This document shows, one piece after another, positions 7,266 to 61,783 of a stretch of 64,000 nt of DNA (positions within the stretch are counted from its first letter, which is position 1; every line of letters starts with the position of its first letter). The DNA lies in NCBI GenBank assembly GCA_050951325.1, contig JBMNIW010000012.1, positions 544,001-608,000 of the forward strand, in the 5' to 3' direction. The notes beneath the pieces are model-generated. The model was not told the DNA's origin. It made no database searches and worked only from the letters and a program-made list of their open reading frames with translations. A program made the translations under genes and the position numbers. The stretch comes from Clostridia bacterium (GTDB lineage: Bacteria; Bacillota; Clostridia; UBA1212; DUPL01).

Positions 7266-7284
7266 AACCTCCTGATTATTGTAT

Positions 7285-7592: not shown

Positions 7593-7611
7593 TCTCTTTG
7601 AGGACAAATTG

Positions 7612-8247
7612 TTATTTTACTCTTCTTCTCTTTAAGGGTACAAAACCAGCCAATGTAAGTACAACCAGAGGAATCATACCCATGTCAGATGTTTCTGGAT
7701 TTTGCTTTGCTATAAACTTTATGCCAGTGATTACAAACCCTGGAGTGAAAGATGGATCAAGGTGATTTGCTACAAAAACCTCACCTTTGTAGTCTGAATC
7801 AAGGTCAAGAGTCAAATCCACTCTACCCTGCCATCCGCCGGATACACTGCCTTCAAACACATATTTTACAATTACTCCTGCATCCTCGTCACTTACTTGC
7901 TCGCCTCCTGCAGTTTGTAGGGCACCTTTGGTTGTAAAACCGAAAGCTGTATTTTTTTCATCGTAGTTTTCAGCACTTCCTCTTGCATATGTAACCACTA
8001 TGGCCTCATACTTGCTTAAATCAATTTCTCCGAGACTTGCATAAGCCCCAAAGTTACACATGGCAATGACATGCGTCTCGTCATAACCAGCAGCAGGCCA
8101 CAGTCCCAATGGTGAATTATTGTTGAAACCTGCCTTACCTTCGATTTGCGATATATCGATTACCAAATCCTCATTTGCCGATACACCCAAAGAAAGCAAG
8201 CTTAACATTAACGACAATGCTAACACAATAGCAAAAATCCTATTCAT
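7612..8247 (-). CDS. Secreted/cell-surface protein with sortase-like NPETSD motif, TM and basic tail (copy 1)
   Basis: Signal peptide ending VSA; beta-rich domain; NPETSD + hydrophobic segment + KRRRVK. Confidence 0.75.
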   Translation of the reverse strand: MNRIFAIVLALSLMLSLLSLGVSANEDLVIDISQIEGKAGFNNNSPLGLWPAAGYDETHVIAMCNFGAYASLGEIDLSKYEAIVVTYARGSAENYDEKNTAFGFTTKGALQTAGGEQVSDEDAGVIVKYVFEGSVSGGWQGRVDLTLDLDSDYKGEVFVANHLDPSFTPGFVITGIKFIAKQNPETSDMGMIPLVVLTLAGFVPLKRRRVK

Positions 8248-8278
8248 TTTTACACCTCCGATAATGTCTGATATGTTA

Positions 8279-8306
8279 ATTATATTACTTCTCAGTTTTA
8301 TGTCAA
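8279..8306 (-). promoter_or_regulatory. Sigma-A-type promoter for surface-protein gene copy 1
   Basis: TTGACA-16 nt-TATAAT on the - strand; copy 2 keeps TTGACT-16 nt-TATAAT at the equivalent position. Confidence 0.6.
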
Positions 8307-47465: not shown

Positions 47466-49781
47466 ATGTTAAAACTTGTAAATGTTACAAAAAGTTATGT
47501 TACCGGCGATTTCAAGCAGGTTGCTTTAAATAATGTGAGTCTTGCATTCAGGGAAAATGAGTTTGTTGCAATTCTGGGTCCTTCAGGAGGCGGAAAGACG
47601 ACGCTATTAAACATCATAGGCGGCCTGGACAGATATGACAGTGGCGAGATGTATATAAACGGCAGACCCACATCCGACTTCAAGGGTGTGGAGTGGGACG
47701 CTTATAGGAACAACAGCATCGGCTTTGTTTTCCAGAATTACAACCTTATTTCCCATATATCTATCCTTGAAAATGTAGAGATGGGAATGACTCTTTCTGG
47801 AATGTCTGCCAGCGAACGAAGGGAAAGGGCCCTTCGATTGCTTGACAGGGTAGGTCTTAAAGACCATGTCAAAAAGAAACCCAACCAGCTGTCAGGCGGA
47901 CAGATGCAGAGAGTTGCGATAGCAAGAGCGCTCGCAAATGATCCTGATATTATTCTGGCGGATGAGCCAACTGGAGCTTTGGATAGCGAAACAGGAGTAC
48001 AAATACTTGACCTTATAAAAGAGATTGCGAAAAACAAACTTGTTATAATGGTTACACACAATCCCGAACTGGCAAACAAGTATGCCACCAGAATTGTCAA
48101 TTTGGTGGACGGACGGATTGTAAGCGACTCCAACCCGTATGAGGAGGAAGAACACAAGCAGTCAGGATACAAACTCAAAATGACTGCCATGAACTTTTTT
48201 ACTGCTTTGAAACTATCCTTTAACAACATAAAGACAAAGAAATTTAGAACAATACTTACCTCTTTCGCAGCAAGCATTGGAATCATAGGGATTGCACTCA
48301 TTCTCGCTCTTTCGAACGGGTTTCAGATAGAAATAGACAAGTTTGAGGAAAACACCATGTCTGGATTCCCCATAATCATAGGACAGCAGGCGACAACTGT
48401 TGATATTGCCGATATGGGTAAAAAGTTTGGAGAGGAGAACAGGAAGTACAAGGAGTTTACAGACAAAAAGGAAGTAATTCCTTTTGACAGGAGCGAAAGT
48501 GAATTAATTCATATGAACAATATTACAGAGGAATATATAGAGTATTTAAAGAGCATTGATCCGAATCTGCTTTTGGGAACCACATATACACGCATGACAT
48601 CTTTGAACTTATTGAAACTTGACAGAGACAATGTGGCAAAGATTGTATCGATGCAAGACCTGGATATGAGTGTGCTTCCAAAAAAGTTTGGTGAAGAAGG
48701 TTTTGTTGAAAAGAACTATGACATACTTTATGGAAAAATGCCAGAGAACAAAAACGAGTTATTGCTGGTTGTGGACAAATTCAATAGACTGGACAAAAGA
48801 GTGCTGGAAACGCTAGGTTTTTCAACTTATGAAAGTATAGCTTTTGAGGACATAATCGGTACCGAGTTAAGAGCCATTCCTAATAATGACTATTACGTGG
48901 AACGGGATGGATTCTTTACACTGGTTGGCAACCCTGCGGACATGACTGAAATATATAATAGGGAAACGGCAATACCTTTAAAAATTGTAGGAATCCTAAG
49001 GATAAAGAAAGACAAGATGCTGGATGTAATCCGTACAGGCGTGGCATATTCTGAAGAACTGATGGAATATATTCTGGAGGATTCGGAAAACAGCGACATT
49101 GCAAAAGCCCAAAGGGAGGCTGATTACAATGTGCTTACAGGCCAACCTTTTGATTTGACAACGGAAAAGGGAAAGGAAGACAAGGAAAATGTTCTCCGGG
49201 TAATTGGAGCAAACTCTGTTCCTTTAATGATAACAATCTTTCCTAGAGATTTTGATTCAAAGGATGACGTATTGGCGTTTTTGGATGCGTACAATGAAGG
49301 CAAAGACAGCAAGGACAGGATAATATATACAGACATGGCCGAGCAGATAACAAAGCTTACGAAAAAGATAATAGATTCAATATCCATTGTCCTTATAGCT
49401 TTTGCTTCAATTTCTTTGTTTGTTTCGTCTATAATGATTGGAATAATTACGTACATTTCCGTACTGGAAAGAACAAAAGAGATTGGAATTCTGAGGTCAT
49501 TAGGAGCAAGAAAATCGGATATTACCTTGGTATTTAATGCAGAAACCTTTATTATAGGGGTGTTTTCAGGATTAATTGGAATAGCCATAGCGTCTTTGCT
49601 GGTCATACCTACAAACATGATAATTGCAAATTATTCAAATCTTGAAAACGTAGCAAAGCTTTCGCCTTTGCATGCAATTATTCTGATTCTTGTAAGCTTG
49701 TTCTTTACAATTGTTGGAGGATTCATACCAAGCCTGATAGCTGCGAATAAGGACCCTGTGGAAGCACTGAGAACCGAATAA
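47466..49781 (+). CDS. MacB-like fused ABC ATPase/permease
   Basis: GPSGGGKTT, LSGGQMQR, ADEPTGALD; FtsX-type SVLERTKEIGILRSLGA. Confidence 0.92.
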   Translation: MLKLVNVTKSYVTGDFKQVALNNVSLAFRENEFVAILGPSGGGKTTLLNIIGGLDRYDSGEMYINGRPTSDFKGVEWDAYRNNSIGFVFQNYNLISHISILENVEMGMTLSGMSASERRERALRLLDRVGLKDHVKKKPNQLSGGQMQRVAIARALANDPDIILADEPTGALDSETGVQILDLIKEIAKNKLVIMVTHNPELANKYATRIVNLVDGRIVSDSNPYEEEEHKQSGYKLKMTAMNFFTALKLSFNNIKTKKFRTILTSFAASIGIIGIALILALSNGFQIEIDKFEENTMSGFPIIIGQQATTVDIADMGKKFGEENRKYKEFTDKKEVIPFDRSESELIHMNNITEEYIEYLKSIDPNLLLGTTYTRMTSLNLLKLDRDNVAKIVSMQDLDMSVLPKKFGEEGFVEKNYDILYGKMPENKNELLLVVDKFNRLDKRVLETLGFSTYESIAFEDIIGTELRAIPNNDYYVERDGFFTLVGNPADMTEIYNRETAIPLKIVGILRIKKDKMLDVIRTGVAYSEELMEYILEDSENSDIAKAQREADYNVLTGQPFDLTTEKGKEDKENVLRVIGANSVPLMITIFPRDFDSKDDVLAFLDAYNEGKDSKDRIIYTDMAEQITKLTKKIIDSISIVLIAFASISLFVSSIMIGIITYISVLERTKEIGILRSLGARKSDITLVFNAETFIIGVFSGLIGIAIASLLVIPTNMIIANYSNLENVAKLSPLHAIILILVSLFFTIVGGFIPSLIAANKDPVEALRTE

Positions 49782-49786
49782 ATAAT

Positions 49787-49822
49787 AAAAGAATCGGCAC
49801 AAACTCTAATGCCGATTCTTTT
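49787..49822. terminator. Bidirectional terminator
   Basis: AAAAGAATCGGCA...TGCCGATTCTTTT inverted repeat. Confidence 0.75.
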
Positions 49823-49905
49823 CTCCATATTCAATTTTTTGTTGCGTCCTTGGCAACACTAGTATTATACTCAAAAAAAGACAAATTATTCATTAATTGA
49901 GAAAT

Positions 49906-50088
49906 TTATCTGTCTACCAGTGCCCTGCTCTTATAGCTTGCACACATGCTTTCATCAATATCTTCAGTTGCGCAGTTCATTTTAGGCGTAACCTTTATAG
50001 CTGACAAAGTACAGCTGTTTTCAAGCGTATCGTTAAAAGAGCAGCTTGCCACATCACAAGAAATAGACTGACATTTTTTATGGCTCAT
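49906..50088 (-). CDS. DUF1540-type small Cys protein
   Basis: ISCDVASCSFN..CTLSAIKV...MCASY; AGGTGG RBS. Confidence 0.75.
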   Translation of the reverse strand: MSHKKCQSISCDVASCSFNDTLENSCTLSAIKVTPKMNCATEDIDESMCASYKSRALVDR

Positions 50089-50188
50089 TTTAGTTCCACC
50101 TTTCAAGTCAACCTTTGTACGGAATTACCGTACAGTTGTATTTTGTCCTGAAAAACGTTATTCTTTCATGTAATTTTAGCCTGATATA

Positions 50189-50217
50189 TTGACAATGGTA
50201 ATCGGTTAGTATAAAAT
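50189..50217 (+). promoter_or_regulatory. Sigma-A promoter of the riboswitch-led operon
   Basis: TTGACA-17 nt-TAAAAT. Confidence 0.7.
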
Positions 50218-50263
50218 CTAAATGCTTTGATATTTTTTTAACAATATTAAAGTGAAAAAAATA

Positions 50264-50365
50264 CTGGTTCCGAGTGTTTTCTACCTAAAGCCAAAATGGC
50301 CATGGGGAAACACCGATAGGGTTGAAAGAGAAATTTTTCAGCCTTCCGGAGTTGAAAAGGAACAG
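50264..50365 (+). ncRNA. Molybdenum/tungsten cofactor (Moco RNA motif) riboswitch aptamer
   Basis: P1 GTTCC/GGAAC; conserved TCCGAG, ACCTAA and ATGG; GAAA-tetraloop stem GGGTTGAAAGA/TTTTTCAGCCT; TTGAAAAGG 3' end; Moco-related genes downstream. Confidence 0.8.
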
Positions 50366-50402
50366 GAAAGAAATCACCCTTATGGGTGGTAATTTCTTTA
50401 TG

Positions 50403-50439
50403 TTCTCTTGTTCCGGACGGAATCAAGAGAATTTTTTTT
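50403..50439 (+). terminator. Riboswitch expression-platform terminator
   Basis: TTCTCTTGTTCC-GGAC-GGAATCAAGAGAA followed by a T-run, ~30 nt upstream of the first ATG. Confidence 0.8.
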
Positions 50440-50468
50440 GATAAAGAAATTAAAAGGAGAAGAATAAA

Positions 50469-51665
50469 ATGAAAAAGCATCTATTAATCTTGGCGATATT
50501 TGTATTAGTTTTAGCACTGGCTGCTGGGTGTGCAAATAATAACGGTCAGAACACCACACCAACACCTACTGATGCACCCCAGTCCTATGAGGATGACGAC
50601 TATATTCTTGAAATTGTAGGAATCGGGGATGAAACCATCAAAGTGACAAAAGGGCAAATCAGGGAACTTGCCGCAGGTGGCAAACTTGTTGAGTACGGCG
50701 AAGACCAGCCTGCATACGCATCCGACAAGACTGACGATGATGGCAACAAAATTCCACACACATTGAAAGGAGTATATTTCGACGATATACTTGAAGTTTA
50801 TGCAGATGACGCAAAAACTTCCGATTTTACAAGCATGTCTATTTATGCCGAAGACGGTTACGAGACAATTCTTTCAGCTGATGTCTTCAACGTAGAACAA
50901 GGCGGAGTTAAAATGATTGTTGCCTTTGAGTATGACGGCATTGAGCTTAATCCAAATGAGAAGAGCGGAGCTTTGAGAGTTGTTTTTCCTGACAAGCCGG
51001 CAAATACCTGGGCAAAACAGGTTTCCAAGATAGTTTTGGCAAGTGAGGAAGATGAGGAAACAGTTCCGGAAACTGAAAGCGTATACTTCTCAGAATCAAC
51101 CGGAGACAAATATGACGGTAGTTATGAGGTAGACGGCACTACATATTATGGAACAAGCTTCAAAAAAATATTTGACGACGGAATATTGAAGAGCGGTGAT
51201 AAGGCCCAGATGTTCGTATATTCGTGGGATGGAACCGAGTATACAAGCTTGAAGACAAAAGAGTATTACGAGGATGCGTTCTTGGTTTATGCATCAAAGG
51301 ATGCTGACAGTGACGAGTTTGCTCAAGAGAAGGACGCACCGGTATTCAATGGGGCAAACATTTTAAAAGGCATGAAGGTAAAACACACCATGTATGTGAC
51401 TGTTGAAAACACTTCTTTTGCAGTACTTGACAAAGTTTTTGAAAAGCTTGATTCCAAAGGCAAAGGCAGTATTCTTGTTAGTGAGCTGCTTGATGAAATA
51501 AATATGAAAGAAGCGTCAATCTATACCATAACCGGGGTTGACGGCACTGAAAAACAGGCAAAGAAAGAAGATTTAAAGGATATAAGGATTGAGTCAACAG
51601 ATGAAGGATACGTTGTTTCAGTTGATGGCAGTGAGTTTGTAATATTGAGCATACAGGCGAAATGA
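50469..51665 (+). CDS. Lipoprotein with repeated molybdopterin-binding (Oxidored_molyb/sulfite-oxidase-like) domains, no catalytic Cys
   Basis: Lipobox LAAGC; KGVYFDDIL..AEDGY..VAFEYDG..GALRVVFP..WAKQVSKI pattern, plus degenerate repeats. Confidence 0.7.
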   Translation: MKKHLLILAIFVLVLALAAGCANNNGQNTTPTPTDAPQSYEDDDYILEIVGIGDETIKVTKGQIRELAAGGKLVEYGEDQPAYASDKTDDDGNKIPHTLKGVYFDDILEVYADDAKTSDFTSMSIYAEDGYETILSADVFNVEQGGVKMIVAFEYDGIELNPNEKSGALRVVFPDKPANTWAKQVSKIVLASEEDEETVPETESVYFSESTGDKYDGSYEVDGTTYYGTSFKKIFDDGILKSGDKAQMFVYSWDGTEYTSLKTKEYYEDAFLVYASKDADSDEFAQEKDAPVFNGANILKGMKVKHTMYVTVENTSFAVLDKVFEKLDSKGKGSILVSELLDEINMKEASIYTITGVDGTEKQAKKEDLKDIRIESTDEGYVVSVDGSEFVILSIQAK

Positions 51666-52228
51666 GGAAGGTTATTAAATCATATTCTGTTTTGGATCTG
51701 GTATTAATAGCGATGCTAGCAGCCCTTGCTACAGGCTTCAAGACTGTTGCAAACACACTGGTCAAGTTAATAACAGGTCCTTTGGGAATCCCAGGAGGGG
51801 CTTTGGCAGGCGGATTTTATATGATGTGGCTTGCCATTGGGCATTCGGTAGTTCGTAAATTTGGGGTATCTTTCATGATATCCCTTGTCCAGGCTCTCGT
51901 ACTATTTACAACCAGCGCACCAGGCAGCCACGGCATCTGGACTTTCATAACGTATTTGATTCCCGGACTTTGCGTTGACATTGTGTTTCTCTTTGCAAGA
52001 AAAAACAATGCCAATGTTCTGCATTTCATGATTGCCGTGATGATGGCAAATGTACTGGGCACACTAGGGAGCTTTTTGCTATGGTTCAGGTTATCCTGGT
52101 TGTGGCTTGCGTTTAGCCTGACTGCAGCGGCTTTATCCGGAGCAATTGGAGGGCTTGTGGCATATTCTGTTGATAAGGGAATTAGGAGAATTGGTTTAAT
52201 TTTCAAAGAGGATGGGGCAGATCAATGA
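51662..52228 (+). CDS. ECF transporter S component
   Basis: ~190-aa, ~6-TM protein with DLVLIAMLAAL (AxxxA) helix 1; EcfA/A'/T in the same operon. Confidence 0.8.
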   Translation: MRKVIKSYSVLDLVLIAMLAALATGFKTVANTLVKLITGPLGIPGGALAGGFYMMWLAIGHSVVRKFGVSFMISLVQALVLFTTSAPGSHGIWTFITYLIPGLCVDIVFLFARKNNANVLHFMIAVMMANVLGTLGSFLLWFRLSWLWLAFSLTAAALSGAIGGLVAYSVDKGIRRIGLIFKEDGADQ

Positions 52229-53670
52229 AAAGAGCACTATTGATACTGACAGTTGTCTTGTTGGTGATTTTTGCAGGATGCACGAACAAGGAAAGTGAAC
52301 CAGGCAAATACATAACCGTAAACGGGGATATAGAAGGCGTCTCTGTAGAAGTGAACTTGAGTGATATTTCAAAAGAAGAGATAGCAATAAAGGATACACT
52401 TTACAAAGGGGTGCGTTTGTCAAAGGTTCTTGAGAAGGTTTCACTACTGGCACCTGTTGATAAGAGCTATGTAATGATAACAGCCATAGACGGAGTGTCT
52501 GCACTAATTGATGCGGAGACTGCCAACTTGTGTCATGTTGTCGAAGTAGAAGGAGTTTTGAACATAAAGGCTCCGGAACATCCGAGGGTTGTTGGTATCA
52601 AGCATGTTCTTGAGATTACAATAGTTGCCCATGAGGATGTGGAAATTTCTGATGAGAATTCTCTAAAAATTGTGGATCAAGAGGGTGACAGACGTATAAG
52701 TTTTGGAAACTGCAAGCTCCTTATGTTTGAGAAATCAGGTGAAAGTAGACAGAACGGAAATCTCGCTGTGAAGTATGTAAAGAAAGCGCCATTAAAGGCG
52801 GAAGAATTCATCGGCGATGATTTCGTACTTTACTTCGACAACTATGACATGCTGAAAGTGGATAGGGATTATGCAGGTGTTTTTGTTTGGGAAAATGGCA
52901 GAATATATTATGAAACGGACGAGAGGTACGATAGTCCTGTTACAGGTATTGTGACAGGCGTCGACACCGTTATATTCGATGCCTTTGACATGATGAAGAT
53001 ATTATTGGATAAGAATGAAATGGTTATGTTTATCCTGCCTGACGGGTTGTCTTACGAGCAGGTGGAATATTACAAGGATAACCTTACAATATTATCAGGC
53101 AATTACAAAAAAGCAGCCAGCGTGAACCCAGCCATATCAAATGTGGCTTTGGCAGCAATAATTACCGGACAATCACCTTTTGCAACAGGCATAACAAAGA
53201 GGGAAGTAAAAGCTCCTAACGTAAAGGACATTTTTGAATACGTTGTCAGTAAAGGGAAAACGGCATCATATATTGAAGGGAATTCAGTATTGGTTGTAAC
53301 CTCGGAAAAGCCAAAACTGAATGTAGCCAACTCGGAAGGATATACTGATAAAGGCGTATTTGAAACAGCCATGTATGAACTGGGCAAAAATCCTGATTTT
53401 TTATTCATACATTTCCACGGCATTGATGATGTAAATCACGAGTACTCTCCTTTGTCAGAGGAAGCCAAGCAGAAGATATATGAAATAGAAGGATATATTA
53501 AAGAGCTGGTTAAAAACTTTTATGGGCATGTGATAATTGTGCCTGACCATGGAGCAGTGACTATAGAAGACACGGATGGGACAAAAAGAGGAAAACACAG
53601 CTTGTTCAAGTATGGAGACATGTATGTGCCCTTCTACTATTTTGAAAGGGGTAGTTTGATTGAAGAATAG
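52225..53670 (+). CDS. Lipoprotein: N-terminal molybdopterin-binding-like domain + alkaline phosphatase/phosphodiesterase-fold domain
   Basis: Lipobox FAGC; YKGVRLSKVL..AIDG; FILPDGL, PAISNVALAAIITG, HFHGIDDVNH and VPDHG metal-site motifs. Confidence 0.75.
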   Translation: MKRALLILTVVLLVIFAGCTNKESEPGKYITVNGDIEGVSVEVNLSDISKEEIAIKDTLYKGVRLSKVLEKVSLLAPVDKSYVMITAIDGVSALIDAETANLCHVVEVEGVLNIKAPEHPRVVGIKHVLEITIVAHEDVEISDENSLKIVDQEGDRRISFGNCKLLMFEKSGESRQNGNLAVKYVKKAPLKAEEFIGDDFVLYFDNYDMLKVDRDYAGVFVWENGRIYYETDERYDSPVTGIVTGVDTVIFDAFDMMKILLDKNEMVMFILPDGLSYEQVEYYKDNLTILSGNYKKAASVNPAISNVALAAIITGQSPFATGITKREVKAPNVKDIFEYVVSKGKTASYIEGNSVLVVTSEKPKLNVANSEGYTDKGVFETAMYELGKNPDFLFIHFHGIDDVNHEYSPLSEEAKQKIYEIEGYIKELVKNFYGHVIIVPDHGAVTIEDTDGTKRGKHSLFKYGDMYVPFYYFERGSLIEE

Positions 53671-54208
53671 GAATGTGCTTATTGCACTGGTTATATTGGT
53701 TGTACTTTCCATTCTGTTTGGTGTTATGCTGTTTGTCTTTATGAATGAAAACAAGAAAAACGTGGAGCAGTATGAAAAAAGGGAAATTGCAATTACCATC
53801 AATGGAGAGAGGGAAGTATATACCTTTGAAGAATTGATGGAGATAAGCCAGCCGGTTGATTTTAAGGCAATATACAAGCCTAGCAACAAGGAACCCATAG
53901 AAAAGACCTATACCGGAATAGAATTGAGGGACCTGCTTGAGAAGTTGGGGGCAGACTTGGAGAACATGAAACAGATTACATTTACTGCAAAAGACGGTTT
54001 TCAGAAAGTGTACCGGGCAGAGGATGTAAGGAAGGAAACCAATGTATTTATAACGCATTTGGTGAATGGAAAGCCTTTCAACGAAGGCATTGATGTGATG
54101 GCATATGAAAAGGAACAGGAAGATGGCGGACCTTTTGTGGTAATAAAGGCGGAAGACAAAGTAAGCCAGAACAGAGTAAAAATGCTTGTAGAGATTGTGG
54201 TGGAATGA
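53660..54208 (+). CDS. Membrane-anchored molybdopterin-binding-fold protein (no Cys)
   Basis: N-terminal TM; YTGIELRDLL..TAKDGF..NGKPF..GGPFVVI..RVKMLVEI pattern. Confidence 0.7.
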   Translation: MKNRNVLIALVILVVLSILFGVMLFVFMNENKKNVEQYEKREIAITINGEREVYTFEELMEISQPVDFKAIYKPSNKEPIEKTYTGIELRDLLEKLGADLENMKQITFTAKDGFQKVYRAEDVRKETNVFITHLVNGKPFNEGIDVMAYEKEQEDGGPFVVIKAEDKVSQNRVKMLVEIVVE

Positions 54209-54870
54209 AACTTACAGTAGAAAATCTAACAGTAATGTTTAAAAACAGAATTATACTTGATAATGTATCATTACAAGTTGAAGCAGGAGAAATTGTTGCA
54301 GTAGTCGGACCAAATGGCAGTGGAAAATCCACACTTTGTACTGCAATTGCAGGTGTGTCTCAAAATTATGGACTGAGTACTGTTGGCAGAATAAGGATAG
54401 GTGACAAAGAGTTGTCCCAACTCAGTATTCATGAAAGATGCGCCTTGCTTGGTGTCATATTCCAGAATTCTGATAACTTTCTTTTTTCTCAATATGTTGA
54501 GGACGAGCTTCGGTTTGCTCCTGAAAATCTATGTGTTCCCAGGGCGGAAATTGAAACAAGAATAAAAGAAGCTTTGGATTTTACCGGTATTAGCTATTTA
54601 AGACATAGAAAAATTCAGGAGCTTTCGGGAGGGGAGAAGAAGCTGGTTTCAATTGCGTCTGTTTTAACCATGATGAGCAAATTCCTAATAGCGGATGAAA
54701 TAACTTCCGGAGTAGACGAGGACAGGAAGGTTCAGATACGGGAGATTCTAAGAAAACTAGCCAAAGACAATATTGGAATACTAATGATATCCCACAACAG
54801 AAACGATATTGAAATTGCTGACAGAATATATGTATTAAAGGATGGCAAATTGCATGATAGAACTGATTGA
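54205..54870 (+). CDS. ECF transporter ATPase (EcfA)
   Basis: GPNGSGKST, FQNSDN, VEDELRFAPEN, LSGGEK motifs. Confidence 0.88.
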   Translation: MKLTVENLTVMFKNRIILDNVSLQVEAGEIVAVVGPNGSGKSTLCTAIAGVSQNYGLSTVGRIRIGDKELSQLSIHERCALLGVIFQNSDNFLFSQYVEDELRFAPENLCVPRAEIETRIKEALDFTGISYLRHRKIQELSGGEKKLVSIASVLTMMSKFLIADEITSGVDEDRKVQIREILRKLAKDNIGILMISHNRNDIEIADRIYVLKDGKLHDRTD

Positions 54871-55507
54871 CGTATCCTTTGCGTATAACAAGAACAACAT
54901 GGTTCTGAGAAATATTACATATACATTCAAAGAAGGTGTACTGTATGTTTTGGGCGGAAAAAACGGCTCAGGCAAAACCACAATGGGAAAACTAATGTGC
55001 GGCCTTGTAAAGACAAAACAAGGTATTGTCAAGGTAAGCGGAACCAATATATATAAAAAGACTGTTGGCGAGATATCAGAACATGTAGGGTATTTGTACC
55101 AGAATCCTGATTTGCAATTATTTGCACCGACCGTTTATGAAGAACTTGTTTTTCCTTATGAACTGAATGGAACACTGACTTATGAAATAAAAGAGAGGGC
55201 GGAAAAGCTGCTCCAGGTCTTCAAGCTTGAAGACAAAAAGGACACCTTTCCTCTGCTCATGTCCTTGGGAGAAAGACAGAGGCTTGCTCTTGCCACAATA
55301 ATGATGAGGGACACCAAATTCATTATATTTGATGAACCGACATCCTCCATTGATGCGGAATGCAAAGCAATGATACATGAATTTATATTAAGCTTTGTTG
55401 AAAATGGAGGAGGAGCTTTTATAATATCACATGATGAGGATTTCAATTTGAACGGAGTAAACGGCATGAATCTGAGGATGGAAGGTGGAATGCTGTATGA
55501 AAAGTAG
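54854..55507 (+). CDS. ECF transporter ATPase (EcfA')
   Basis: GKNGSGKTT, YQNPDLQLFAPTV, MSLGERQR, FDEPTS motifs. Confidence 0.88.
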   Translation: MIELIDVSFAYNKNNMVLRNITYTFKEGVLYVLGGKNGSGKTTMGKLMCGLVKTKQGIVKVSGTNIYKKTVGEISEHVGYLYQNPDLQLFAPTVYEELVFPYELNGTLTYEIKERAEKLLQVFKLEDKKDTFPLLMSLGERQRLALATIMMRDTKFIIFDEPTSSIDAECKAMIHEFILSFVENGGGAFIISHDEDFNLNGVNGMNLRMEGGMLYEK

Positions 55508-56234
55508 ACTGGATCCAAGAATCACCATGTTGTTTATTGTACTGACATCCACACTGTCCGTCCTTGCCTCAAATGTATATTGGCTGCTGCTGGTCTTTTT
55601 ATTGACCCTGTTGTTAAACATTGTATTCAGATTAAATCCATTGAAGACTCTGTACAGAATGAGAAGGCTTGTGTCAATGATAATCTTCATAGCCTTTTTC
55701 CAAAGCCTCACAACTTCGGGAGGGAGACCAATTATTACTTTGCTCGGTGCAAATATTGTAACTTCCAAAGGACTTGTGGACAGCTTGTCTTTTGTACTCA
55801 GGATGGGCAACATAATGCTGGCCGTCATGCTCGGTACAAAACATGACAGTCGTGATATGATAGACGGACTTGCAAAACTCAAGATTCCTTATGAGCTGGC
55901 CTTTATGACAGGAATAGCACTCAAGTTTATTCCACTGTTTGGTCAGGAGTTTGCCGATAGAATAAAAGCCGTAAGTTTGAGAGGAATAAATATTAAGAAA
56001 CTCAAGCTGTCAAAAAAGATAAAAATCTATTCACACATTTTGGTGCCTGCAATTTCCGGCAGCATTATCAAGAGCAGGGATATTGCCTCATCCATGGAGA
56101 CAAGGGGATTCAGGGCGTATCCTGATAGAACCAATTTAAGAGTATTGAAACTAAAATTAGCAGACTATATCGCAATGATAATTGCATCATCAATATTTTT
56201 ACTAATCATATACTTTATGTTTGCAAGGAGGTAG
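55497..56234 (+). CDS. ecfT: ECF transporter T component
   Basis: LDPRI start, ALKFIP, SLRG and METRGF Arg motifs. Confidence 0.88.
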   Translation: MKSRLDPRITMLFIVLTSTLSVLASNVYWLLLVFLLTLLLNIVFRLNPLKTLYRMRRLVSMIIFIAFFQSLTTSGGRPIITLLGANIVTSKGLVDSLSFVLRMGNIMLAVMLGTKHDSRDMIDGLAKLKIPYELAFMTGIALKFIPLFGQEFADRIKAVSLRGINIKKLKLSKKIKIYSHILVPAISGSIIKSRDIASSMETRGFRAYPDRTNLRVLKLKLADYIAMIIASSIFLLIIYFMFARR

Positions 56235-56236
56235 TT

Positions 56237-56977
56237 ATGAAAGTATTAACGGTAACGGGGCTTAGCGGAAGCGGAAAGACCACCGTAATAGAGAATTTGA
56301 TAAAAGAACTAAAAAGAAGAGGTTATTCCATAGGAAGTGTAAAGGAGATTCATTATGAGGCGTTTGCCATTGATACTCCTGGAAAGAACACCTACAGACA
56401 CAGACAAGCAGGAGCAGAAATTGTAACAGCAAGAGCTCACAATGAAACAGACATATTGTATCCCGGACACCTGCCGATTTACGAAGTGCTCTCCCACTAT
56501 AATCAGGACTATGTTTTGCTTGAAGGAGTAAGGGACTGTGTGGCTCCGGAGATTGCTGTTTGCAAGGAAGATGCTGAGCCTGAAATAACTCCTCTTACGT
56601 TTGCAGTAAGTGGAAGGTTTGCAAACACCGGTGTTACGGAGTACAAGGGTCTTCCTGTAATATCAGCAGTTGATGACATAGGAAGACTGGCAGACCTTGT
56701 CGAGGAAAAGGTTCCGAGTTTAATGCATGATATAGAGTATGAATGCTGTGGTGAATGCGGTACGGATTGTAGAGGATTTCTTGCAAGGCTTCTGAAGGGA
56801 GAGGTTGTCAGTTCCGATTGCGAACTGAGTCAAAGAGAAGTCAAGTTGATTATCGACGGTCAGGATATTGTAATGGTGCCTTTTGTTCAAAGGATACTGA
56901 AAAACGCAGTGGTGGGAGTTGTATCGGAACTTAATGGGTACAAGGAAGGAAAGAAGATAGTAATAGAGATAGAATGA
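56237..56977 (+). CDS. mobB: MobB-family P-loop protein with C-terminal Fe-S Cys cluster
   Basis: GLSGSGKTT, GSVKEIH, DTPGKNTYRHRQAGA, LLEG; CCGECGTDC...C; VPFVQRIL. Confidence 0.82.
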   Translation: MKVLTVTGLSGSGKTTVIENLIKELKRRGYSIGSVKEIHYEAFAIDTPGKNTYRHRQAGAEIVTARAHNETDILYPGHLPIYEVLSHYNQDYVLLEGVRDCVAPEIAVCKEDAEPEITPLTFAVSGRFANTGVTEYKGLPVISAVDDIGRLADLVEEKVPSLMHDIEYECCGECGTDCRGFLARLLKGEVVSSDCELSQREVKLIIDGQDIVMVPFVQRILKNAVVGVVSELNGYKEGKKIVIEIE

Positions 56978-57627
56978 TGGGCGAAATTATTAAGCGGTTC
57001 GAGAGCAAGAAAAACAGTGTTTTTCTAGTAAGTGTGGAAGGAATCATGCAAGTTGTAAAGGTGCATGAATCAGAGGAAAAAGCCTACTTTGAATCAGAGG
57101 TTTTAAAAAGGCTTTACTTGTATGCTAACGTACCAAAGGTTATTAAGGTAGAATCAAACAGGATCTACATGGAATACATAGAGGGAAAACTTGCTGTTGA
57201 CTACTTTCTCGAATGCGATACTGAAGAAGTAAAAGAACTGGCAAGACAGATGCTATCCTTTTGCCGGGTTTACTCAGACCAATTTGATAACTTCCGTTTG
57301 TCGGATACAAACTTCCGGAATTTTATCGTGGTTGAAATGGACGAAGAAATTGAATTGTACGGTGTTGATTTTGAGGAAAGGGAAGAAGGCACACTGATAA
57401 AAAGTGCAGCTGAACTGTGTGCTTTCTCGTTTTTGTATGATGTTGATGCTTATAAGAAGAAAACCTTTTACAATACAATTGCATCAAATTGCTCCGAGCA
57501 GGAAGTTGACTTTTTAAACGACTATATTTTTAATAGCTTGAATAAGCTTATTAAAAGACGCAGATTGAATTTAAATGTTAAAAGTGTCTTTGAAGAATTG
57601 GTAATTGGCAACGGGCATATGGTATAA
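56974..57627 (+). CDS. Protein-kinase-like fold protein (APH/Bud32/RIO-like), small-molecule kinase candidate
   Basis: VVK..E, VPKVI, YMEYIEG, DTNFRNF catalytic loop, GVDFE. Confidence 0.65.
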   Translation: MMGEIIKRFESKKNSVFLVSVEGIMQVVKVHESEEKAYFESEVLKRLYLYANVPKVIKVESNRIYMEYIEGKLAVDYFLECDTEEVKELARQMLSFCRVYSDQFDNFRLSDTNFRNFIVVEMDEEIELYGVDFEEREEGTLIKSAAELCAFSFLYDVDAYKKKTFYNTIASNCSEQEVDFLNDYIFNSLNKLIKRRRLNLNVKSVFEELVIGNGHMV

Positions 57628-57673
57628 TATATAATCCATAGAGTTTGAATATGCGAAAAGGGAGTGAGATGGC

Positions 57674-58408
57674 ATGAAGGTAACACTCAAGGACAAGGTT
57701 GTAGTTGTAACTGGTGCGGGAGGCGGCATCGGCAGCGCCATCTGTGAGGGGGTGGCTAAAGAGGGTGCGAGGATTGCACTTTGCGGCGGCAACAACCTGG
57801 AAAAGCTGAATGCCTCAGCGGACATTATTAGGGAATACGGTGTTGACCCATATGTTCTTCCAGGTGATCTTGCCAACATGGATTTTCTGACAACTTGCAT
57901 TGACAAAATAGCACAGCATTTTGGCAGAATTGACATACTTATTAACAATGCCGGAATTGCACACAATGCTCCATTTGAAGAAACAAAAATGGAGGATTTT
58001 GACAGGATAATGAATATAAACGTAAAGGTGCCTTTTGTTTTATGCCAGAAGGTGCTTCCATATTTGCGTGAATCGAATCATGCTACAATTATCAACATTG
58101 CATCTGTTGTTGCCCACAAAGGGTATGTAAATCAGGCAATATACACTGCATCCAAGCATGCCCTGCACGGGTTTACAAAATCGCTTGCAAACGAGGTCTA
58201 TGCTGAAAATATTAGAGTTCATACTGTTTGTCCGGGTGGAGTATTTACCGATATGGTTAAGGTAACACGTCCGGATCTGACTGGTGAGGATATGATTATG
58301 CCTGAAGAGATTGCGGATATTGTCCTATTCCTCCTTACAAGAAGAGGCAATGCTGTCATTGACGATATCTGCGTGCGGAGAGCTGCAAAAAATCCATTTG
58401 ATGTATGA
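57674..58408 (+). CDS. Short-chain dehydrogenase/reductase
   Basis: TGAGGGIG, NNAG, YTASK motifs. Confidence 0.92.
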   Translation: MKVTLKDKVVVVTGAGGGIGSAICEGVAKEGARIALCGGNNLEKLNASADIIREYGVDPYVLPGDLANMDFLTTCIDKIAQHFGRIDILINNAGIAHNAPFEETKMEDFDRIMNINVKVPFVLCQKVLPYLRESNHATIINIASVVAHKGYVNQAIYTASKHALHGFTKSLANEVYAENIRVHTVCPGGVFTDMVKVTRPDLTGEDMIMPEEIADIVLFLLTRRGNAVIDDICVRRAAKNPFDV

Positions 58409-58452: not shown

Positions 58453-58713
58453 TTATCCCGCAATTATGACAGGAAATATTTTTATCCTGTCGCCATCTTT
58501 AATCGGATCGTTCCAGTTGTGTTTGACACTGTTTATGGTTGCAAATCCAACTTCTTCATCAGGAATGTTCAATAACGAAACAAGTTCATCCAATAGGATT
58601 TCATCTCTTCCGTCAATTGAGAGTTCAAAACTGTTCTCGTCGTCCTTGAACCTTTCCTTGTTGTACTTTTTCAATGTGTGAAACAGCTCAACAGTTATAA
58701 CCATCTTAGACAA
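58453..58713 (-). CDS. MoaD/ThiS-family sulfur carrier
   Basis: Ubiquitin-like size; IKDGDRIKIFPVIIAG C-terminus; follows aor. Start may be 58704. Confidence 0.8.
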   Translation of the reverse strand: MSKMVITVELFHTLKKYNKERFKDDENSFELSIDGRDEILLDELVSLLNIPDEEVGFATINSVKHNWNDPIKDGDRIKIFPVIIAG

Positions 58714-60484
58714 ACTCCTTTATTGACTCATCTTCTTCAGCCAAAATTTCCTCGCAACGCCTTGCATATTCTTCTGCAATCTCGTTTGCCATATACTGAT
58801 CAAGTTTGCCTGTTGTTGTTGGTGTTTCAAAAAATCTCTTGGGAAGCTTTACATCCTGTATTGCAAAGCCCAAGGATTTCTTAATCTCTAGCTTTGTTCT
58901 CAGGATACGCTTTGCAATATCTGTCAGTGTTTCGTCAGTATAGTCAAGCCCAACGCATTTAAGGACCATCCTGATATTTTCCCTGCTGTATACTTTACGT
59001 GCAAACAGGCATATGATTAAAGAATTCAGCAGGCAGCGCTCGATTTCCTCGCTAATAAGGTAGTCTACGAGTTTTTCCTTGTCAAGCTCCTTGTCCCTGT
59101 TGGACTGGTCATATGAATAGCCTGCATTACAGAGGTGAGAATGTCTTGCGCCTACCAATGCGCCTACAAGAGAGCCGTAGCCCGTGTGGTAACCAGGCAT
59201 TTCGTTACCAGCAATCTGCATGCCAAAATCATAACCGCCATACTTCTTGGCTACGTGTTTTACTCCCTTGCCCATATCGGTATAGAGCTGATTGACACCT
59301 TGTGCAATGTAGTCGACAGCTTTAGCAAGGTTTACATAATCGCCCATCTTCAAAGGCAGAATGGTTTGCTCTTCTGTAATGATGCCCCTTTCAAGAGCTT
59401 CACAAGCCCATCCCAGAACAACACCGCAGGACATGGCGTCAAGCCCGTTTCTTTCAACAGCATCGATAACGTATAAAACTCCATCCGTATTATCAACACC
59501 AAGGAATGAGCCAAGTGCATAAATTAGTTCGTAGTCGTATCCGACCGAAATCGCTTCGTACTCATAGCCGTGGTCAAATTCACGTCTGAACTGTCCTATG
59601 TGTATGCATCCAACAGGACATCCTGTGCATGCCATTTTTCTAATCAGGTTGTTCTTCGCAAAGGCCTCTCCTGAAATATTTTCAGCATGCTCAAAAGTTC
59701 CAGAGGTAAGGTTTCGGGTCGGAAGACCTCCCATGGCGCTCAATGGCTCTACGTTTATGGGAGTGCCGGCATCATGATATTTTGCCATTACTTCTGTTTC
59801 GGTTACCTGTTTGTACAGTTTGGAGTAGGTCTTGAAATAGTCCTTGAAATTGGGTATTGGCATGGGAAGATCGCCTGTAACCTGCATTGCTTTCATAAGC
59901 TTGCTGCCAAAAACGGCACCCAGGCCCAGTCTTCCAAAATGTCTGTATGTGTCAACGCAAACACTTGCATAGGAGCACAGATTTTCACCTGCAGGACCTA
60001 TGCGGATGATGGAACGCTTTCCGCTTCCATGCTCCCTGTTTCTGATATATGAGCCTACCTTGTCGGAGTCCATTCCCCAAAAAGCGCGTGCGTCCTTTAT
60101 TTCCACTCCTGTTTGTGTAACTGTAACATAACAAGGTTTTTGAGATTTACCTGTAATTACTATGGCGTCATAGCCTGCATGCAGCATTGTGAAGGCGAGT
60201 CTGCCACCTGCATAGGACTCACCCAGTTCTCCTGTTAGAGGAGAAACAAACATGGCTACAGTCTTGGTTATGACTGGAAATACAGATGAAGCTGCGCCAA
60301 TTGCAAAAATTATAGGTTGATCCTCATGAAGGGGAGGCAAATCAGGATTCATGTTTTCCTGTAGGAGTTTTGAGGCAACTCCCACACCTCCCAAATAGGC
60401 TCTAAGATCCTTTCTCTTGTCAACCCTTATGCGGCCTGTTGAGAGATTTATATTCAAAACTCTTATGTAATCTTTATAAAACAT
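58706..60484 (-). CDS. aor: Tungsten-containing aldehyde:ferredoxin oxidoreductase (AOR/WOR family)
   Basis: YLGGVG, SPLTG, GPAGEN, GRLGLGAVFGSK, CTGCPVGC, GLDAMS, ICLFA motifs; GGAGG RBS before MFYKDY. Confidence 0.92.
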   Translation of the reverse strand: MFYKDYIRVLNINLSTGRIRVDKRKDLRAYLGGVGVASKLLQENMNPDLPPLHEDQPIIFAIGAASSVFPVITKTVAMFVSPLTGELGESYAGGRLAFTMLHAGYDAIVITGKSQKPCYVTVTQTGVEIKDARAFWGMDSDKVGSYIRNREHGSGKRSIIRIGPAGENLCSYASVCVDTYRHFGRLGLGAVFGSKLMKAMQVTGDLPMPIPNFKDYFKTYSKLYKQVTETEVMAKYHDAGTPINVEPLSAMGGLPTRNLTSGTFEHAENISGEAFAKNNLIRKMACTGCPVGCIHIGQFRREFDHGYEYEAISVGYDYELIYALGSFLGVDNTDGVLYVIDAVERNGLDAMSCGVVLGWACEALERGIITEEQTILPLKMGDYVNLAKAVDYIAQGVNQLYTDMGKGVKHVAKKYGGYDFGMQIAGNEMPGYHTGYGSLVGALVGARHSHLCNAGYSYDQSNRDKELDKEKLVDYLISEEIERCLLNSLIICLFARKVYSRENIRMVLKCVGLDYTDETLTDIAKRILRTKLEIKKSLGFAIQDVKLPKRFFETPTTTGKLDQYMANEIAEEYARRCEEILAEEDESIKEFV

Positions 60485-60893
60485 CGTCGACTTCCTCCAT
60501 TGTAAGACATTGATGTGGACAGAATCTTGTGCAGGATCCACAGTGTTTGCAGATTATTGGCAAATTCTCTTCCTCGTCAAAAAACACCGCGCCAACTATG
60601 CAAGCATCAACACACTTTTTGCATCCGGTACACATATCCTTGTTAAGCAGGACACCGCCTCCTTTACGTTCAACCAACGCACCTGTAGGACAAGCTTCAA
60701 GACATGCTCTGTCATCCTTGCATGCGTGGCATACAGTTGCATAGAATCCGTGTTTCAAGCCTCCGTTTGTCTTTATTTTTATTGCACTTTTTGAAATGGA
60801 GAAGTTGTGTTTGTTGACAGCTGCACATACGGTCATGCATGAAAAGCAGCCAATGCACTTCCTCATTCCGTCTGTTCTAAGCGCTCTTGCCAC
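60474..60893 (-). CDS. 4Fe-4S ferredoxin-like subunit of AOR
   Basis: CIGCFSCMTVC, CHAC..CLEACP, CTGCKKCVDAC, CKHCGSCTRFCP motifs. Confidence 0.9.
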   Translation of the reverse strand: MARALRTDGMRKCIGCFSCMTVCAAVNKHNFSISKSAIKIKTNGGLKHGFYATVCHACKDDRACLEACPTGALVERKGGGVLLNKDMCTGCKKCVDACIVGAVFFDEEENLPIICKHCGSCTRFCPHQCLTMEEVDDVL

Positions 60894-61045: not shown

Positions 61046-61783
61046 GTGAACAGAATGAGTACACACAAATCAAGCAAAAGATATGAAAGGCAGATGAATT
61101 TACAGAGTCTTCCCGACAACTTTCAGGACTTATTGCGTAATAGCAAGGTGTTGATTCTGGGAGCAGGAGGCTTGGGCTGTGCAGCCTCCATTTATGTCGC
61201 TGCAGCTGGTGTTGGAAAAATAACGGTGGTGGACAGGGACACTATAAACGAGCCCGACTTGAACAGACAGATACTCTATACACCGGAGGACATAGGAAAA
61301 AAGAAAGCCAAAACATGTGTGGAGAGGCTACATAAATTCAACCCGGATATAGAATGTGTGGGATTGGCAAAGGAGATAAATGACAAACTACTAAAGGACC
61401 TTGTTCCGAAGCATGATATTGTCATGGATTTATGCGACAACTATTCCACGAGAATAAAAATAGCTGAAGCATGTCAAAAATATGGTAGGCAATGTGTGGT
61501 TGCAGCTGTAAATGGACTTGAAGGATTTGTGATGGTTACAGACAAAGGTTCTGCATGTTTTGGTTGCCTTTATCCTGACGAAGTAAAGCTTTCAGTCAGC
61601 CCGCCGAGGGTTTTGGGAGCAGCAGCAGGAAATGTGGGAGTTCTAGCTGCCATGCGATGCATACTGACTTTATGTAATGTTGGAAAGGTCGGTGTCATGT
61701 ATTGTCTTGATTTTATAAACATGATTATTGACGAGATAGAGATAACGAAAAGCACCAATTGTCATGTTTGCTGCAAGGCTTGA
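61046..61783 (+). CDS. ThiF/MoeB/HesA-family adenylyltransferase
   Basis: RYERQ, GAGGLG, DRDTINEPDLNRQ, CDNYSTR, CFGCLYP, CHVC motifs. Confidence 0.9.
   Translation: MNRMSTHKSSKRYERQMNLQSLPDNFQDLLRNSKVLILGAGGLGCAASIYVAAAGVGKITVVDRDTINEPDLNRQILYTPEDIGKKKAKTCVERLHKFNPDIECVGLAKEINDKLLKDLVPKHDIVMDLCDNYSTRIKIAEACQKYGRQCVVAAVNGLEGFVMVTDKGSACFGCLYPDEVKLSVSPPRVLGAAAGNVGVLAAMRCILTLCNVGKVGVMYCLDFINMIIDEIEITKSTNCHVCCKA

Follow-up and report, generated by a model that had tools for sequence, protein, structure and literature searches.

How does a bacterium obtain the pyranopterin cofactor of a molybdenum (Mo)/tungsten (W) enzyme when its genome offers no known route for making that cofactor? This question is raised by a locus in a 64,000-nucleotide stretch of DNA from a Clostridia bacterium (Bacillota; Clostridia; UBA1212; DUPL01), namely positions 544,001 to 608,000 of contig JBMNIW010000012.1 in assembly GCA_050951325.1, which we call the window. 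The locus is an operon of nine genes (g1 to g9) that encode a transporter of the energy-coupling factor (ECF) type, three predicted surface proteins, a MobB-like protein and a minimal kinase. It lies behind a riboswitch of the molybdenum cofactor (Moco)/tungsten cofactor (Wco, or Tuco) class and close to a gene for an oxidoreductase of the AOR family. We consider it probable that the operon encodes a group I ECF importer for the uptake and salvage of preformed W/Mo pyranopterin cofactor, or of its pterin moiety, under a riboswitch through which the cofactor represses it. Import of preformed cofactor had been proposed in an initial annotation of the window, and the sequence evidence collected here supports that proposal: the leader matches the Moco riboswitch family, the S component is just remotely related to the characterised YkoE, and carriers of the operon are associated with a Mo/W enzyme.

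The operon and its leader

The leader contains, downstream of a sigma-70-like promoter, an RF01055 aptamer (Table 1) that was the sole Rfam match at the gathering score in the window and occurred as a single copy in a scan of the source genome. The P3 hairpin positions were deleted in the cmscan alignment of this aptamer, and the P3 region was just a few nucleotides long in all 19 aligned aptamers of the clade described below. As reported by Regulski et al. (2008; PMC2408646), aptamers without P3 (58 of 176) correlate with use of the tungsten cofactor, and riboswitches of this class often govern tungstate/molybdate transporters; in the main text of that paper the words "cobalt" and "salvage" each occur 0 times. 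The aptamer is followed in order by a hairpin, eight U residues (read from the sequence), a ribosome-binding site and the start codon ATG at 50469. None of 200 shuffled sequences folded as well as the hairpin, and the aptamer together with the expression platform had a folding z of -5.9. Because the hairpin and the U-run stand between the aptamer and the ribosome-binding site, the leader reads as a transcription-terminating OFF switch, implying that the operon would be shut off in response to the cofactor.

Matching records in RNA libraries came from metatranscriptomes of biogas fermenters, anaerobic digesters and bioreactor sludge (14 records), and in the four RNA runs examined the operon was partly covered by contigs at 95-100% identity. 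In two of these runs, X1 and X2, contigs began at 50246 and 50247, passed through the aptamer and terminator, and ended at 53916 (X1) and 52997 (X2). At most, these starts weakly suggest that transcription begins at the predicted promoter or that a 5' end lies nearby, given that assembled contigs cannot show transcript ends or levels and that DNA carry-over is possible. Uncovered stretches (e.g., 49748-50246 and 57411-57653) were not used as evidence.

The nine open reading frames (ORFs) lie on one strand between 50469 and 57627, and neighbours overlap by 4-29 nucleotides or are set 2 nucleotides apart. An S component (g2, PF09819), a T component (g7, PF02361) and two ABC ATPases (g5 and g6, both PF00005) in a single operon constitute the group I, or dedicated, ECF arrangement. 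Like the scores of the ATPases, the NCBIfam score of the T component was under the equivalog cut-off. The sole Pfam match of g2 was PF09819, and PF07456, the family to which EetB is assigned (PMC9973259), did not match it. YkoE (5EDL), the solved and characterised member of PF09819, matched a 26-sequence profile of the S clade at an E-value of 0.036 (16.9 bits), in an end-to-end alignment of profile residues 11-184 with YkoE residues 3-177. By this sequence comparison, the S component belongs to a clade that is distinct from YkoE and remotely related to it. S components of the YkoE type, which serve hydroxymethylpyrimidine (HMP)/thiamine, are under the control of thiamine pyrophosphate (TPP) riboswitches. 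At the gathering score, no TPP riboswitch (RF00059) was found in the window or in 33 related loci (15 + 4 + 14, the last 14 with 1.5 kb flanks). Among the proteins scored there were 139 S homologs at an E-value of 0.001 or below; PF09819 was present in all but one of the 120 listed, and two homologs bear an automatic thiamin/HMP name.

The proteins g1, g3 and g4 are predicted to reside at the cell surface; their lipoboxes and membrane anchor, and the absence of Cys described here, were read from the translations. The AlphaFold2 (AF2) model of g4 had a mean predicted local distance difference test (pLDDT) value of 96. In Foldseek searches, this model matched the Moco domains of SorA and of chicken sulfite oxidase (E-values 4.5e-7 to 1e-5, TMq about 0.6) and PruR (7KOM, TMt 0.70; 7KOS, TMt 0.65; sequence identity 16-17%). 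Further, residues 24-111 at the N-terminus of g3 aligned with the g4 family in HHalign with 95% probability (E-value 3.4e-8, 89 columns). The fold of the Moco domain of the sulfite oxidase (SUOX) family was thus found in the g4 model and in the Pfam match of g1, and the Mo-ligating Cys of that family was not: g4 lacks Cys altogether, g1 lacks it beyond the lipobox Cys, and 14 of 46 members of the g4 family lack it beyond residue 35. SUOX enzymes require a Cys ligand for Mo, as stated in a 2026 review (PMC13259868), so the mature g1 and g4 proteins cannot ligate Mo in the manner of these enzymes. The same review describes PruR as a Cys-less periplasmic protein of the SUOX fold that binds reduced pterins (PMC13259868). 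On sequence grounds, we regard g1 as a candidate pterin-capture protein.

In the C-terminal phosphodiesterase domain of g3, residues D273, D401, H405, D441, H442 and H458 were invariant in 36 sequences, and position 305 was Ser in 21 and Thr in 15 of them. From an HMMER alignment to ENPP4, we take the former to be the ligands of two metals and the latter to be the nucleophile. The best solved relatives were ENPP4 (2.1e-8) and a Xanthomonas NPP, that is, nucleotide pyrophosphatases/phosphodiesterases (NPPs). The full conservation of the catalytic residues suggests catalysis and not mere binding.

Structure prediction of a complex between the S component and g4 scored 0.71 in each of three runs, and the best of three controls scored 0.00. 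Of 80 solved complexes, 58 attained the mark for this score, as did 2 of 110 mismatched pairs; these counts apply just approximately here, because the complex was predicted from our own alignments. Both partners had pLDDT values of at least 83, and the runs shared at least 78% of their contacts. In the predicted interface, the membrane helix of g4 (residues 5-35) lies on S residues 143-165 and 118-123, and a loop of the g4 ectodomain (residues 111-117, in which D112 is invariant and G113 nearly so) touches S residues 32-44, including the invariant I43 and P44. The model supports docking of g4 on the S component.

The MobB-type protein g8 ends in an extension that NCBIfam annotates as a "MobB/FeS domain" type. 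Every one of the 62 orthologs kept G8, G13 and T15 of its P-loop, 61 kept K14, and Cys170, 171, 174, 178 and 195 were kept in 55-56 of the 62. It is a candidate cytoplasmic acceptor or chaperone of the cofactor. The catalytic set of g9 (K29, E40, D111, N113, N116 and D132) was invariant in 28 of 28 sequences, and its AF2 model (pLDDT 95) was nearest in Foldseek to PRPK/Bud32, RIO kinases, WaaP and homoserine kinase; judged from its residues, g9 is a minimal kinase with a complete catalytic set. The initial annotation had described the locus as a promoter and a Moco-type riboswitch before nine overlapping or abutting genes, for three surface proteins with sulfite oxidase-like folds (one fused to an alkaline phosphatase-fold domain), ECF S, A, A' and T components, MobB and a kinase-like protein, and each of these elements was recovered by our consensus scan, RF01055 search, Pfam/NCBIfam, structural and profile comparisons, and conserved catalytic set.

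Conservation and genomic setting

Scanning one genome per GTDB species for the S component gave 463 tblastn-confirmed stretches, of which the best 80 loci were kept for locus counts. Neighbours were counted by BLASTP of the window proteins against all ORFs within 12 kb of S, and many loci are cut by contig ends. By this count, g4 was present in 76 of the 80 loci, A in 74, A' in 73, T in 71, g3 in 70, MobB in 66, the kinase in 51 and g1 in 36. The recurring order was (g1 or a g4-like gene)-S-g3-g4-A-A'-T-MobB-kinase. In addition, 46 of 400 further genomes sampled from the phylum contained homologs of the S family, and the best 14 of these loci all had g1/g3/g4 neighbours.

The riboswitch was conserved together with the genes. 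With a covariance model for the clade, built from 19 confirmed aptamers, 60 of the 80 loci were positive and gave 61 matches together; each match lay upstream of S and on the strand of the operon, against 0 matches on the opposite strand in 1.26 Mb; 15 of the 60 positive loci had supplied training sequences. Where a locus had 9 kb or more of upstream flank, an aptamer was nearly always found (47 of 49), the exceptions being L046 and L067. In a hand tally, 33 aptamers lay within about 3.1 kb of S, before the first operon gene, and 27 lay 7-10 kb upstream. The Rfam model detected an aptamer at the gathering score in 3 of 15 loci scanned, a figure that understates conservation because several loci lack upstream sequence and the window-like aptamers of the clade are divergent. 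A regular-expression search, which found 15 of 80 loci and missed aptamers confirmed by Infernal, was dropped. Tandem Moco-class aptamers (7983-8096 and 8181-8301; 101 and 76 bits with the clade model) precede one operon at L068. Another operon, at L095 (G276:C41), has a second aptamer of the Moco class on the minus strand at 226-348, directly past the kinase gene and facing the genes beyond.

Genes between aptamer and S were annotated in one locus of a long operon form, that of Sedimentibacter hydroxybenzoicus (L028, 1555-18035). They encode two S-layer-homology proteins (one with Oxidored_molyb), more Oxidored_molyb proteins, FMN_bind proteins, an FMN_bind+Oxidored_molyb protein and a NapH-like Fer4_5+FMN_bind protein; past the kinase gene, an FAD_binding_2+FMN_bind protein is encoded. 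The two modules are separate units in genome G001, where the ECF/MobB/kinase unit (L009) lies far from the surface unit and each stands behind its own aptamer, which ties both modules to the same signal. The surface unit of G001 (L092, G001:C5, 621-4863) comprises a g1-like gene, a 170-aa ORF that is unknown, g3-like and g4-like genes and FMN_bind. At L096 (G140:C42:14000-32000), S-g4-A-A'-T, an aptamer-controlled moaA region and AOR lie within about 17 kb on one contig, a case of clustered salvage and synthesis genes.

The gene content of the source genome bears directly on the function of the operon. Its assembly totals 3.08 Mb over 12 contigs, with a completeness of 96.09%. Profile searches of this assembly found no match to the MoaA C-terminal domain, MoaC, MoaE or MoeA_N, and 11 of 14 control genomes were positive each time. 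No MogA was found there, the sole MoCF_biosynth protein being CinA. A receptor of the ModA/TupA/WtpA type was not recognisable in it, and the matches to SBP_bac_11/PBP_like_2 were PotD, PstS and a LysR regulator. Further, the genome contained exactly one AOR-family (AFOR_C) match and no match to PF00384 (DMSO-reductase family) or PF02738 (xanthine-dehydrogenase family), so that AOR is its sole recognised Mo/W enzyme. Judged by its gene content, the source genome has no known means of synthesising the cofactor. A single pterin enzyme, no pathway, no oxyanion transporter, and a cofactor riboswitch before a transporter that adjoins the enzyme together form the picture expected of a salvage system. 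The S clade was found in 0 of 24 relatives from the same order, and S, AOR and MoaA were each absent from all 11 genomes of that order in the class sample described below; the island of AOR plus operon therefore looks acquired. Its GC content of 0.38-0.44 is ordinary and speaks neither for nor against horizontal transfer.

Among 71 carrier genomes, for which completeness was not reported and whose cross-tabulation sets were copied by hand, AOR was found in 64, MoaA above cut-off in 37, MoeA_N in 37 and a TupA-like protein (E-value 1e-20 or below) in 30. Both MoaA and MoeA were missing from 32 carriers, of which 29 had AOR and 1 had a TupA-like protein. TupA was present in 29 of the 37 MoaA-positive carriers, and in S. 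acidaminivorans a second aptamer controls tupA-tupB-tupC-mogA/moaB-moeA-moeA-moaA-moaC; the ECF operon is thus not simply the tungstate transporter of the cell. Cultured carriers with MoaA include Sedimentibacter hydroxybenzoicus, S. acidaminivorans and Maledivibacter halophilus.

A class sample of 300 genomes, each at least 90% complete, contained 15 strong and 2 weak matches to the S clade. AOR was found in 15 of the 15 strong carriers and in 22 of 284 others (Fisher p 1.3e-15, uncorrected for relatedness; the carriers span six families). At the level of genomes, the operons are accordingly linked to a Mo/W enzyme. The initial annotation had suggested examining co-occurrence with aor and with absence of moaA/moaC; the association with aor was evident, and that with absence extended to just 34 of the 71 closest carriers and 1 of 15 in the class sample. 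This single MoaA-less strong carrier, G276, has MoaC and a fragmented assembly.

One of the weak S matches belongs to G237, a genome that is 100% complete and gave no match to MoaA, MoaC, MoeA or AOR. Its aptamer, the sole RF01055 of that genome, is directly followed by the gene for a distant S component, which shares 29% identity with g2 and scores 24.2 bits against PF09819; next come a 156-aa ORF that has no assigned family and a gene for a guanylyltransferase resembling MobA. Beside these genes, and transcribed divergently from them, are a formate dehydrogenase alpha gene (TIGR01591, 842 bits against a cut-off of 666) and its NAD-side partner. Aptamer class, downstream enzyme and client enzyme differ from those of the window, and the logic would be the same, to import a pterin cofactor and then to tailor it; the locus is a possible variant of Mo cofactor salvage. 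A search of the 400 other genomes of the phylum for loci of the G237 type returned operons of the main clade instead.

Downstream of the operon lies the AOR gene, the presumed client of the cofactor, which we would include in the system (Table 1). The initial annotation had named a tungsten AOR, MoaD and MoeB as neighbours. Of the first, membership of the AOR family was confirmed (AFOR_N and AFOR_C); the supposed MoaD is, by its Cys motifs, a minus-strand gene for a Cys-rich, ferredoxin-like protein; and the supposed MoeB could be assigned to the ThiF/MoeB family, below every equivalog cut-off. Since ThiF/MoeB homologs lay near the operon in just 4 of 80 loci, this gene was not counted in the system. 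A short-chain dehydrogenase/reductase (SDR) gene 47 nucleotides past the operon was considered as a pteridine reductase or system part and rejected: none of the 60 best PDB rows bore such a name, and the gene was near the operon in 6 of 80 loci.

Table 1. Positions of the operon, its leader and neighbouring genes in the window, and of the related G237 locus.
Feature	Positions	Strand	Evidence or remark
Sigma-70-like promoter, TTGACA-17-TAAAAT	50189-50217	+	Consensus scan, 11/12 matches
Moco/Tuco riboswitch aptamer RF01055, P3-less	50256-50378	+	66.7 bits against gathering score 36, E 7.2e-14
Intrinsic terminator, hairpin and U8	50402-50440	+	Hairpin 50402-50432, -15.2 kcal/mol, z -3.4
g1, lipoprotein with N-terminal Oxidored_molyb domain, 398 aa	50469-51665	+	26.7 bits against cut-off 24; lipobox LAAGC
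g2, ECF S component (PF09819), 188 aa	51662-52228	+	Pfam 58 bits
g3, lipoprotein, g4-like N-terminus and C-terminal NPP-type phosphodiesterase/pyrophosphatase, 481 aa	52225-53670	+	Lipobox IFAGC; Phosphodiest 42.7 bits
g4, membrane-anchored SUOX/PruR-fold protein, 182 aa	53660-54208	+	N-terminal transmembrane helix; Oxidored_molyb 23.3 bits, just below cut-off 24
g5, ECF ATPase A	54205-54870	+	ABC_tran (PF00005) 101.8 bits; best NCBIfam ECF_ATPase_1 177.7 bits, below equivalog cut-off
g6, ECF ATPase A'	54842-55507	+	ABC_tran (PF00005) 97 bits; best NCBIfam ECF_ATPase_1 145 bits, below cut-off
g7, ECF T component, CbiQ-type	55485-56234	+	PF02361 92.9 bits
g8, MobB-type P-loop protein with C-terminal Cys motif	56237-56977	+	TIGR00176 83.6 bits against 76.2; NF011064 134.9 bits
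g9, minimal protein kinase-like kinase	56974-57627	+	Weak RIO match, 21.6 bits
SDR gene	57674-58408	+	Best NCBIfam and PDB matches generic FabG/hydroxybutyrate dehydrogenase
AOR-family oxidoreductase	58706-60541	-	AFOR_N and AFOR_C
Cys-rich ferredoxin-like ORF, 139 aa, upstream of AOR	60474-60893	-	Several CxxCxxC-type motifs, read from translation
ThiF/MoeB-family gene	61046-61783		Below every equivalog cut-off
Cys-rich ORF, 66 aa	49906-50106	-	Divergent from operon promoter region
ABC ATPase-FtsX-like permease fusion, 771 aa	47466-49781	+	Just upstream; no apparent relation to operon
G237 locus (L093, G237:C2:8000-20000)	1300-7647		
G237 aptamer (in L093)	5893-6029		RF01055 87.6 bits, 137 nt, P3 hairpin present

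Proposed cofactor import and its alternatives

From the parts list of the operon, its conservation, its regulation and the genomic correlations, we infer a substrate, a direction of transport and the following functional steps. At low cofactor the terminator would not form and the operon would be made. The Cys-less SUOX/PruR-type folds of g1, g3 and g4 would then bind pterin cofactor released by other cells, and the NPP domain of g3 would trim dinucleotide forms by removing their nucleotide or phosphate groups, examples being molybdopterin guanine dinucleotide (MGD) or molybdopterin cytosine dinucleotide (MCD). Seated on the S component, as in the docking model, g4 would hand over the ligand, whose import A, A' and T would drive. 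Inside the cell, the kinase g9 may restore a phosphate if one was removed, and the P-loop/Cys protein g8 would receive the cofactor and pass it to apo-AOR; binding of cofactor to the aptamer would finally shut the operon off. The operon would be the only source of cofactor in the source genome and in about 29 related AOR genomes without MoaA, MoeA and, in all but one, TupA, and in genomes that also synthesise the cofactor it would add to their own supply, as other vitamin ECF systems do. A broader proposal, to which we give a little less than even weight, is that this is the first dedicated transporter of intact W/Mo pyranopterin cofactor in any organism and underlies a cofactor-sharing economy among anaerobes. 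Whole lineages would then be true Moco/Wco auxotrophs that strip nucleotides at the surface, import the cofactor through an S component with docked pterin-binding proteins and load AOR, and the sister clade would do likewise for formate dehydrogenase by way of MobA.

Several observations weigh against import of the intact cofactor. Free Moco is described as unstable outside proteins (PMC9026282), and ECF exporters exist (PMC9973259). According to the 2026 review, the pocket of PruR is probably too small for Moco (PMC13259868), so that g4 might bind a smaller pterin. Further, AOR lay within 12 kb of S in 3 of 80 loci, and MoaA was present in 14 of the 15 strong carriers of the class sample; the operon is therefore not tied to auxotrophy. 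Since tup, moeA and moaA share one operon in carrier lineages, a single missing contig could remove all three. AOR without the pathway also occurs without the operon: three complete genomes from two genera (G130, G213 and G289) have AOR but lack MoaA, RF01055 and an A1-type S component. Two of them, G130 and G289, also lack MoaC and MoeA, and their AOR neighbourhoods contained neither the riboswitch nor the operon. AOR-ferredoxin pairs of this group lie at L097 (7988-10539) and L098 (1095-3405). Finally, the long operons encode an extracytoplasmic redox module to which import assigns no role; it might keep or restore reduced pterin.

The ECF module could instead send cell-made Moco or Wco outward to load the surface sulfite oxidase-like proteins, which would work with an FMN-binding/NapH-like redox system. 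The flavin and Fe-S proteins of long operons would thereby gain a role, including the S-layer-anchored Oxidored_molyb, FMN_bind, Fer4_5/NapH-like and FAD_binding_2+FMN_bind proteins of S. hydroxybenzoicus, and the FMN_bind gene in the surface module of G001 would be accounted for; cofactor synthesis is possible in 14 of the 15 sampled carriers, and FAD export of the ECF type (EetB/FmnA) is demonstrated in Listeria (PMC9973259). However, export cannot work in the 32 of 71 carriers, or in the source genome, that are without MoaA and MoeA and would have nothing to export. The absence of Cys from mature g1 and g4 disagrees with the Mo ligand that SUOX enzymes need, the S component belongs to PF09819 and not to the EetB family PF07456, an OFF switch triggered by cofactor suits acquisition better, and it is not obvious what an intact NPP domain would contribute to loading. 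We therefore regard export as unlikely.

Two further explanations retain an import function and change the substrate. An ECF importer of tungstate/molybdate, analogous to the Co/Ni systems and with surface proteins and an alkaline phosphatase-fold domain that bind the oxyanion, would agree with the lack of a recognisable TupA/ModA-type binding protein in the source genome. Oxyanions bind sites of the alkaline phosphatase type. The riboswitch class often controls such transporters (PMC2408646), as in the tupABC example of S. acidaminivorans. Imported oxyanion would nevertheless be useless without molybdopterin and MoeA, and MoaA and MoeA are both missing from those same 32 carriers and the source genome; most MoaA-positive carriers (29 of 37) have TupA already, and at least one of them controls it by a separate riboswitch. 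Surface domains of a pterin-binding fold, fully conserved NPP residues that suggest catalysis, and a conserved kinase and MobB without a role in oxyanion uptake also speak against it, and we judge it improbable. Equally little credence, in our estimate, is due to a different compound, namely a simple pterin of the monapterin/neopterin type, a precursor such as cyclic pyranopterin monophosphate (cPMP), or thiamine/HMP, with a riboswitch that merely coordinates expression. The fold of g4 matches PruR, a binder of small pterins that is said not to fit Moco, and the S component shares the Pfam family of YkoE and has the two homologs auto-named thiamin/HMP. Yet importers under riboswitch control normally carry the ligand or its precursor (TPP, FMN, B12 and preQ1 are examples; PMC3766115), and no TPP riboswitch occurred in the window or the 33 loci. 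MobB is kept in the operon in 66 of 80 loci, cPMP would be unusable here because MoaE was not found, and simple pterins would leave the association with AOR unexplained. Import of preformed cofactor or its pterin moiety therefore remains our preferred reading.

Relation to known systems

According to a 2021 review, Moco must be made de novo everywhere except in Caenorhabditis elegans because it is unstable outside proteins (PMC9026282), and the nematode is presented as the only organism known to take it up (PMC9026282; see also PMC7849362 and PMC9793310). A survey of riboswitch regulons gives uptake categories for B12, thiamin, riboflavin, queuosine and folate, and for Moco just biosynthesis and Mo/W ion transporters (PMC3766115). 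The 2026 review calls it unknown how pterins cross bacterial membranes (PMC13259868). Our literature search, whose scope excluded subscription journals, supplements and RegPrecise, found no paper on an ECF or other bacterial importer for Moco or the tungsten cofactor, in agreement with the initial annotation, to which no characterised ECF importer for Moco/Wco was known.

If cofactor uptake is true, a bacterial importer would overturn obligatory de novo Moco synthesis for prokaryotes and provide the first named proteins that move Moco/Wco across a membrane. It would also explain genomes with AOR or formate dehydrogenase and no cofactor pathway, and for the ECF mechanism it would be new that an extracytoplasmic binding protein docks on the S component and serves it. 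The operon makes it testable whether Moco can be transported, and by what. It bears on Moco delivery in human Moco deficiency, on metabolic reconstruction of metagenomes, in which the absence of moa genes is at present taken for incompleteness, and on the activity of W/Mo enzymes in anaerobic digesters, where the operon occurs in RNA libraries.

Among known transporters of metals, the CbiMNQO/NikMNQO systems are group I ECF transporters in which an extra small membrane subunit, CbiN or NikN, works with the S component. In the operon described here the accessory protein has an ectodomain of pterin-binding fold, the S component is PF09819 and not CbiM, and control is by a cofactor riboswitch. 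TupABC, ModABC and WtpABC share with the operon the riboswitch class and the link to the supply of W/Mo enzymes. In contrast to these systems, no receptor of the periplasmic-binding-protein fold was found in the operon by Pfam/NCBIfam; further, the operon coexists with TupABC in 29 of 37 MoaA-positive carriers and is present where the pterin pathway is missing. PruR of Agrobacterium and Vibrio (7KOS and 7KOM) is, like the domain studied here, a small extracytoplasmic, non-catalytic, Cys-less protein of the SUOX-type fold. PruR signals to the cyclic di-GMP enzyme DcpA in Proteobacteria and binds tetrahydromonapterin (PMC13259868), whereas the present domain occurs in Bacillota, is anchored by lipid or a transmembrane helix, and is encoded in an ECF operon under a Moco-class riboswitch; no DcpA/DTB-type regulator was detected by Pfam among the nine operon genes. 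Dietary uptake in C. elegans likewise uses Moco made by others, but that organism is an animal with no identified transporter, and it is proposed to take up Moco in protein-bound form (PMC9026282).

The closest likeness is to the vitamin ECF importers of the ThiT, RibU, QrtT, CbrT and YkoEDC type, with which the operon shares S, T, A and A' components and riboswitch repression by the end product; in YkoEDC-like group I systems all parts are encoded in one operon, as here (PMC3766115). YkoE itself (5EDL) has PF09819 and its length in common with g2, with a similarity of just E 0.036, and the aptamer here is of the Moco class and not TPP. Unlike in the vitamin importers, the sensed cofactor is Moco/Tuco, the operon adds three extracytoplasmic binding-fold proteins, a phosphodiesterase, a MobB-like protein and a kinase, and one accessory protein is predicted by modelling to dock on the S component. 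On our reading, the system would be an ECF importer of the vitamin type that is controlled by a riboswitch and departs from known examples in its cofactor and accessory modules; if uptake is confirmed, the capability would be new for bacteria.

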